From NCBI RefSeq assembly GCF_029227855.1, contig NZ_CP074356.1: a stretch of 64,000 bases of DNA. One strand, 5' to 3'. Below are positions 3,329 to 3,365 of the stretch, piece after piece. The notes beneath the pieces are model-generated. The model made no database searches. It saw nothing but the letters and a program-made list of their open reading frames with translations, and was not told where the DNA came from. Made by a program: the position numbers and the translations under genes. This stretch comes from Escherichia coli (lineage in GTDB: Bacteria > Pseudomonadota > Gammaproteobacteria > Enterobacterales > Enterobacteriaceae). Each line of letters starts with the position of its first letter. The first letter of the stretch is position 1.

Positions 3329-3365
3329 CTGGGTGTATATACAGTTATGCTGTGAGTATATACAG
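3329..3365. promoter_or_regulatory. Two tandem LexA operators (SOS boxes) in the lexA promoter
   Basis: Two CTG-N10-CAG palindromes read directly: ctgggtgtatatacag (3329-3344) and ctgtgagtatatacag (3350-3365), immediately upstream of the lexA start. Confidence 0.88.

Follow-up and report, generated by a model that had tools for sequence, protein, structure and literature searches.

The LexA/RecA autoregulatory loop is a textbook mechanism (PMC6590174, PMC9210283), and the double operator of lexA in Escherichia coli has been known since 1981. Early reports on the lexA operators are those of Brent and Ptashne (1981) and of Little, Mount and Yanisch-Perron (1981), as cited in PMC7440846 and PMC9210283. 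The operators were later dissected by mutation on a sequence identical to the one described here: half-site point mutations in the K-12 lexA promoter established that repression is exerted by operator I as well as by operator II (PMC7440846), and LexA binding as well as derepression by DNA damage were reported (PMC7440846, PMC9210283). The gene lexA and its neighbor dinF are stated to be co-transcribed (PMC6590174). Related SOS promoters with a single operator (recA, sulA, umuDC, uvrB and others) share the operator family and the mechanism of promoter occlusion, but carry one box only; several of these boxes are nearer to the consensus than those of lexA (umuD and sbmC with 28.5 bits vs. 19 and 18 bits at lexA, according to the weight matrix described below).

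In undamaged cells one LexA dimer would be bound to each of the two 16-bp imperfect palindromes. LexA on the upstream operator, which contains the -10 element, and LexA on the downstream operator would keep RNA polymerase off the lexA promoter. Upon DNA damage, RecA on single-stranded DNA would stimulate the self-cleavage of LexA at Ala84-Gly85, the operators would become empty and transcription of lexA (and dinF) would rise. The ongoing supply of LexA would then re-repress the whole regulon once the damage signal fades, which constitutes a negative autoregulation.

The window, i.e., the whole stretch of 64,000 nucleotides that was analysed, contains such a pair of CTG-N10-CAG motifs. A previous sequence-only reading had placed two operators, 5 bp apart, at 3329-3365, and direct reading of the sequence gave exactly these coordinates and this spacing. 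Since lexA and dinF are located on the minus strand, upstream corresponds to higher coordinates.

3350-3365, minus strand: upstream (promoter-proximal) LexA operator, a 16-mer CTG-N10-CAG by sequence reading
3345-3349, minus strand: spacer of 5 bp between the two lexA operators, TTATG on the plus strand and CATAA in lexA sense
3329-3344, minus strand: downstream LexA operator, a 16-mer CTG-N10-CAG by sequence reading
2712-3320, minus strand: lexA coding sequence, 202 aa (ORF)
1314-2639, minus strand: dinF (MATE transporter), 441 aa, starting at a conserved Met; second gene of the unit

On the plus strand the letters are CTGGGTGTATATACAG at 3329-3344 and CTGTGAGTATATACAG at 3350-3365. In lexA sense (minus strand) the region reads CTGTATATACTCACAG-CATAA-CTGTATATACACCCAG, followed by GGGGCGGA and the start codon ATG (3320-3318). 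In the nomenclature of Kozuch et al. (2020; PMC7440846) the upstream operator, with the 16-mer CTGTATATACTCACAG and the 20-mer TGCTGTATATACTCACAGCA (3348-3367), corresponds to "operator II"; Table 4 of PMC3009722 lists an identical sequence as the lexA site. The downstream operator, with the 16-mer CTGTATATACACCCAG and the 20-mer AACTGTATATACACCCAGGG (3327-3346), corresponds to "operator I" and leaves 8 bp to the lexA start codon. The upstream operator also fits the longer pattern CTGT-N8-ACAG, and the downstream operator has CCAG where ACAG is expected. Both 16-mers are imperfect palindromes with the AT-rich centre that characterizes the gammaproteobacterial SOS box (consensus TACTG(TA)5CAGTA). 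From centre to centre the two operators are 21 bp apart, which corresponds to two helical turns.

The ORF that starts 8 bp downstream of the boxes was assigned to LexA by NCBIfam TIGR00498 (289.5 bits vs. a cutoff of 111), and its product matches PDB chains of E. coli LexA over residues 1-202 with an E-value of about 1e-129; the operator complexes 3JSO, 3JSP and 3K3R are among these chains. A hand count in the translation located Ser119 and Lys156 as well as Ala84-Gly85, where cleavage takes place, and the LexA encoded here is intact and predicted to be cleavable. DinF (NF007690) follows on the same strand, which bears out that the boxes lie upstream of lexA-dinF, as the sequence-only reading had put it. 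The gene order zur, yjbJ, dinF, lexA, dgkA, plsB is the order of K-12 read on the opposite strand, and dgkA, lexA and dinF are all encoded on the minus strand. We regard the pair, with a probability of about 0.97, as the SOS boxes at which LexA represses transcription of E. coli lexA(-dinF), and no observation contradicts this assignment. The designation as the classic autoregulatory arrangement is justified, both operators being functional on the identical sequence (PMC7440846, PMC9210283), and so is the description as an ordinary feature, given that the double operator has been textbook knowledge since 1981. The boxes had further been proposed as a landmark for strand and operon structure. 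That lexA and dinF share one strand follows from the ORFs, whereas the near-palindromic boxes themselves give no strand.

The window contains 30 copies of the bare motif CTG-N10-CAG, compared with 16.7 expected from base composition, so that matrix score and conservation have to carry the argument. Only one pair of such motifs with a start-to-start distance of 21 bp was found in the 64 kb, namely the lexA operators, and the longer pattern CTGT-N8-ACAG is present once (shuffle mean 0.65). For the scoring, a LexA weight matrix of 20 bp was established from the 17 sites other than lexA which are given in Table 4 of PMC3009722, and was symmetrised; the single-operator SOS promoter sites constitute this training set, and the lexA site was left out in order to avoid circularity. 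Among approximately 64,000 positions the upstream operator (3348-3367) ranked first with 19.1 bits and the downstream operator (3327-3346) second with 18.1 bits; the third-best score was 10.9 bits. Exact per-position P-values were 1.6e-7 for the upstream and 3.2e-7 for the downstream operator, corresponding to 0.010 and 0.021 expected sites per 64-kb window, and in 200 first-order Markov simulations the window maximum had a mean of 11.6 bits (sd 2.2). Both operators fall within the range of the training sites (13.0-28.8 bits, the weakest being polB with 13.0). Berg-von Hippel heterology indices based on the same 17 sites were 6.4 for the upstream and 8.0 for the downstream operator (training range 0.3-8.9). 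A LexA matrix scan had been suggested as the check on the two boxes, and both pass it.

No match to the perfect consensus 20-mer TACTGTATATATATACAGTA with up to three mismatches was detected in the window. By hand count the two lexA operators deviate from it at 5 and 6 positions, so that the consensus alone is too stringent a criterion and sites have to be scored with a weight matrix. The second lexA box of Salmonella was likewise missed by a consensus-only FIMO scan (PMC8072944). The next LexA-like site of the window, GTCTGAATGAATACCCAGTA at 18886-18905, lies within the xylE coding region by collinearity with K-12. With its 10.9 bits, a score of which 1.2 sites are expected per window, it is probably a chance match and was rejected as a LexA site.

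Given the abundance of the bare motif, both boxes might be regarded as chance occurrences of CTG-N10-CAG in AT-rich intergenic DNA that regulate nothing, all the more as a third motif close by (3391-3406) appears to be a non-functional chance match of this kind. We consider the probability of this explanation practically negligible, as the two scores lie far above the next best one at an expectation of 0.01-0.02 per window, the operator region hardly varies among 5425 E. coli genomes, paired boxes are kept before lexA in many genera while the flanks diverge, and mutational evidence for operator function is published (PMC7440846).

Within the species, 5425 of the 5426 complete E. coli genomes contain the 301 bp around the site as well as the 55-bp operator region 3321-3375; in the remaining one, no match to the lexA promoter region was found. 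The operator region shows an identity of at least 99% in 5335 genomes (about 98% of the 5425) and is 100% identical in a K-12 MG1655-derived genome, in REL606 and in BL21. From the 90 variant genomes two were inspected, both taken from the bottom of the ranking. They carry an extra C in the C-run beside the downstream operator and a G-to-C exchange in the spacer between -35 and -10; both changes lie outside the 16-bp operator cores. Compared with the lexA operators of K-12 nothing is different here, and gene neighborhood, overlap with the -10 element and Dcm site are common to both.

In one other complete E. coli genome the match to the lexA promoter is located on a record labelled as plasmid. 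A spread of the operator region by plasmids was considered and rejected, as the ten "plasmid" matches are records of 0.4-5 Mb or a linear contig of 17 kb with E. coli chromosomal genes, i.e., mislabelled chromosome. The 17-kb linear record NZ_CP069917.1 ("Klebsiella oxytoca plasmid unnamed6") contains the lexA operator region with 100% identity and also carries lexA, dinF, yjbJ, zur, yjbL, dusA and pspG, the proteins being of the E. coli type. This record resembles a piece of the E. coli chromosome, resulting from contamination or misassembly, and not a plasmid-borne lexA.

With an identity of about 98.5% to MG1655 over the region compared, the window derives from a non-K-12 strain. An insert of about 3.45 kb between lysC and yjbD (29119-32569) is absent from K-12 MG1655, and no significant PADLOC match to a defence system was found in it. 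The following features were annotated in the insert and elsewhere in the window:

29257-30189, plus strand: P-loop protein with Zeta-toxin domain, in the insert
30225-31025, minus strand: RlaP-family nucleotidyltransferase, in the insert
31022-32149, minus strand: SPFH/Band-7 protein, in the insert
50100-55110, minus strand: complete rRNA operon (16S, tRNA, 23S, 5S), equivalent to rrnE of K-12 (Rfam)
27481-27677, plus strand: lysine riboswitch ahead of lysC (Rfam)
10479-10602 and 25437-25586: sRNA families STnc490 and STnc430 (Rfam)
11752-11822, 15981-16051 and 45051-45226: naRNA4 family, four copies (Rfam)

The anatomy of the lexA promoter was assigned by manual reading combined with the literature. 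A scan for consensus sigma-70 promoters did not call the lexA promoter, because its -35 hexamer matches at three of six positions and the scan requires four of six.

3378-3383, minus strand: probable -35 hexamer TTCCAA, 3/6 matches to TTGACA
3355-3360, minus strand: lexA promoter -10 hexamer TATACT, located within the upstream operator, 5/6 matches to TATAAT
3328-3332, no strand assigned: Dcm site CCWGG, CCAGG in lexA sense, within CCCAGGG; overlaps the 3' end of the downstream operator
3391-3406, minus strand: third CTG-N10-CAG, CTGGTTTATTGTGCAG in lexA sense, 25 bp upstream of the upstream operator

The gap between TTCCAA and TATACT amounts to 17 bp, and GGTTCCAAAAT around the -35 element is largely conserved in Enterobacterales. 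An overlap of operator II with conserved RNA polymerase binding sequences has been described (PMC7440846). Based on the position of the -10 element and on PMC9210283, in which +17 denotes the inner C of the Dcm site, we infer that lexA transcription starts at about 3347-3348, within the 5-bp spacer. The downstream operator would accordingly extend from about +4 to +19, with the transcription start on one side and the ribosome-binding site on the other; this layout agrees with the one in PMC7440846.

The third motif at 3391-3406 scores 6.8 bits with a heterology index of 17.7, and eight such sites are expected per window. In the promoter alignment it is not kept as a box in Klebsiella, Enterobacter Ag1 and more distant genera, and a function as LexA operator is improbable. 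It presumably corresponds to the putative upstream "operator III" of lexA, which was reported as non-functional and without effect (PMC7440846). A location of the motif within a terminator hairpin of dgkA was also considered and rejected, since 3380-3436 shows no significant folding (-8.5 kcal/mol, z 0.07).

One of the two boxes might mainly serve another purpose, as a roadblock against read-through from dgkA, as a binding site for another factor or, by way of the overlapping Dcm site, as a switch responding to growth phase. A terminator scan of 3321-3429 detected none between dgkA and lexA (fold z 0.07), and the Dcm site does overlap the downstream operator; both observations would suit such a role. 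The Dcm site at lexA is methylated only in stationary phase and LexA inhibits this methylation, but methylation has no effect on LexA binding, lexA transcription or SOS induction (PMC9210283). Moreover, no alternative factor is known for the lexA operators, and each operator alone represses lexA (PMC7440846). We consider a main function of this kind very improbable.

The downstream part of the transcription unit is less simple than gene order and strand suggest. The long ORF of dinF matches NF007690 with 911 bits, the alignment starting at residue 19, and the homology of DinF across genera begins at the Met of 2639. In the K-12 annotation dinF comprises 459 aa and starts at 2693, 18 codons before 2639; the NCBI annotation of another E. 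coli strain lists a DinF of 441 aa starting 72 bp after the lexA stop. The gap between lexA and dinF consequently measures 72 bp, or 18 bp under the K-12 annotation. In the matrix scan no LexA-like site of at least 5 bits was found between the two genes. The gap harbors the following element:

2672-2701, minus strand: GC-rich hairpin of 13 bp, then TTTGTTTTT; lexA-dinF intergenic, a terminator-like match

The minimum free energy of this hairpin is -24.9 kcal/mol (z -5.2), and none of 200 shuffled sequences folded as well. The K-12-style start codon of dinF (2693) sits inside the stem. Hairpins of different sequence were found at the same place between lexA and dinF in about 9 of 15 Enterobacterales. 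This suggests a putative partial terminator or attenuator, or else a stabilising hairpin; as a partial terminator it may set the ratio of LexA to DinF. With a strong hairpin and a T-run between the genes, dinF may receive only a part of the lexA transcription, and full co-transcription is not readable from the sequence alone. For the lexA-dinF operon structure proposed by the sequence-only reading, gene order and strand were confirmed, but the hairpin and T-run in the gap make it less simple than assumed. Among the matches listed in a literature search, nothing relevant to an internal terminator between lexA and dinF was found.

For a comparison with other bacteria, species-representative genomes were screened for CTGTAT-N7-CAG followed, after 0-12 nt, by a second CTGTAT-N7-CAG, which yielded at least 120 loci. 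At no fewer than 76 of these at least 120 loci, a LexA homolog identified by tblastn with the LexA of the window starts 3-125 bp downstream in the same orientation. At least 11 further loci from Burkholderia, Caballeronia, Polaromonas and other betaproteobacterial genera are situated at lexA with the pattern on the other strand, and at least one Pseudomonas locus ends just after a LexA-like N-terminus. Among the matches listed, about 88 of 120 paired-box loci are located at lexA; as the sample was picked by the two-box pattern, the frequency of lexA genes without a second box is not derivable from this number, which shows that the arrangement is widespread, not that it is universal.

Like in E. 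coli, the lexA genes of other Gamma- and Betaproteobacteria among the matches listed (e.g., Pseudomonas, Vibrio, Shewanella, Burkholderia) have two CTGTAT-N7-CAG boxes directly upstream; they differ from E. coli in the inner letters of the boxes and in a spacer of mostly 3, 4, 6, 8, or 9 bp instead of 5 bp. Among the matches listed, the spacers at the 76 same-orientation lexA loci measure 0 bp (1 locus), 2 bp (1), 3 bp (35), 4 bp (13), 5 bp (18), 6 bp (2), 8 bp (1), and 9 bp (5). Again among the matches listed, the length depends on the lineage: Pseudomonas, Stutzerimonas and Shewanella have 3 bp, Vibrio has 4 bp, Haemophilus and the Idiomarina group have 4-5 bp, most Enterobacterales have 5 bp and Pseudoalteromonas has 8-9 bp; two Enterobacterales (Rosenbergiella and an unclassified Enterobacterales genome) have a spacer of 3 or 4 bp. 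At the listed lexA loci the downstream box mostly ends 7-11 bp before the start codon and the upstream box carries a -10-like TATACT or TATAAT.

An alignment of 15 Enterobacterales lexA promoters, a sample biased by the search pattern, showed conserved boxes within diverged flanks. The upstream box is invariant at all 16 nucleotides, including seven which were not forced by the pattern. This invariance is consistent with a double duty as operator and -10 element. In the downstream box the inner seven nucleotides vary by genus and the ends CTGTAT and CAG are kept, these ends being forced by the pattern.

Other Enterobacterales matches show tandem boxes with a 6-bp spacer TTTATA (GATACA in one case), behind which a further, third element resembling a box and an ORF with the N-terminus MLAQLT or MLTQLT follow. 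About 15 of the non-lexA loci among the matches listed are presumably recN promoters, judged by the N-terminus of RecN and the recN boxes of E. coli. These recN-like promoters resemble lexA in having tandem LexA boxes a few bp apart, but they possess three boxes and a spacer of 6 bp. Unlike the lexA operators they regulate a repair gene and not the repressor, so that no autoregulation results. Among the matches listed, the spacer is far more conserved at the recN-like loci than at lexA.

The spacing bears directly on the question whether the two lexA operators form a phased cooperative unit comparable to OR1-OR2 of lambda, in which two LexA dimers, positioned on one common side of the helix, stabilise each other and sharpen the switch. 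The centre-to-centre distance of two helical turns at E. coli lexA and the constant 5-bp spacer in most of the sampled Enterobacterales would fit such a unit, and cooperativity has repeatedly been speculated upon in literature cited in PMC7440846. However, among the matches listed the length of the lexA spacer is not conserved between lineages, and a spacer which varies by lineage implies that no single helical phase is required. Furthermore, the comparison of the wild-type double-operator promoter with a matched single-operator promoter gave no evidence of cooperativity in vivo and revealed no difference in induction, kinetics or fitness (PMC7440846); according to the same study no formal biochemical test of LexA cooperativity at lexA exists. 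We consider a phased cooperative unit improbable. Both the spacing, which is not conserved across lineages, and the lack of a difference between double and single operator (PMC7440846) favor independent sites, and the two operators appear to act independently and additively instead of as a phased cooperative pair.

Given a lineage-dependent spacer of mostly 3-9 bp, selection might keep two independent LexA sites, one of them locked to the -10 element and the other to the leader beside the ribosome-binding site. The second site may block promoter escape or read-through from dgkA, and together with the structurally conserved lexA-dinF hairpin the arrangement would set the ratio of LexA to DinF. 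We put this forward tentatively and as rather unlikely in its entirety.

The double operator serves as a landmark, which identifies the window as part of an E. coli chromosome running opposite to the K-12 numbering, and as a positive control for LexA-site scans of the window, in which all other sites score far lower. The finding changes nothing in the known biology of lexA. Two boxes before lexA are widespread and their spacing is lineage-specific, which fits the published failure to detect cooperativity. If selection does maintain two independent sites and the hairpin does set the LexA:DinF ratio, this would refine a textbook system and not represent a new kind of system.
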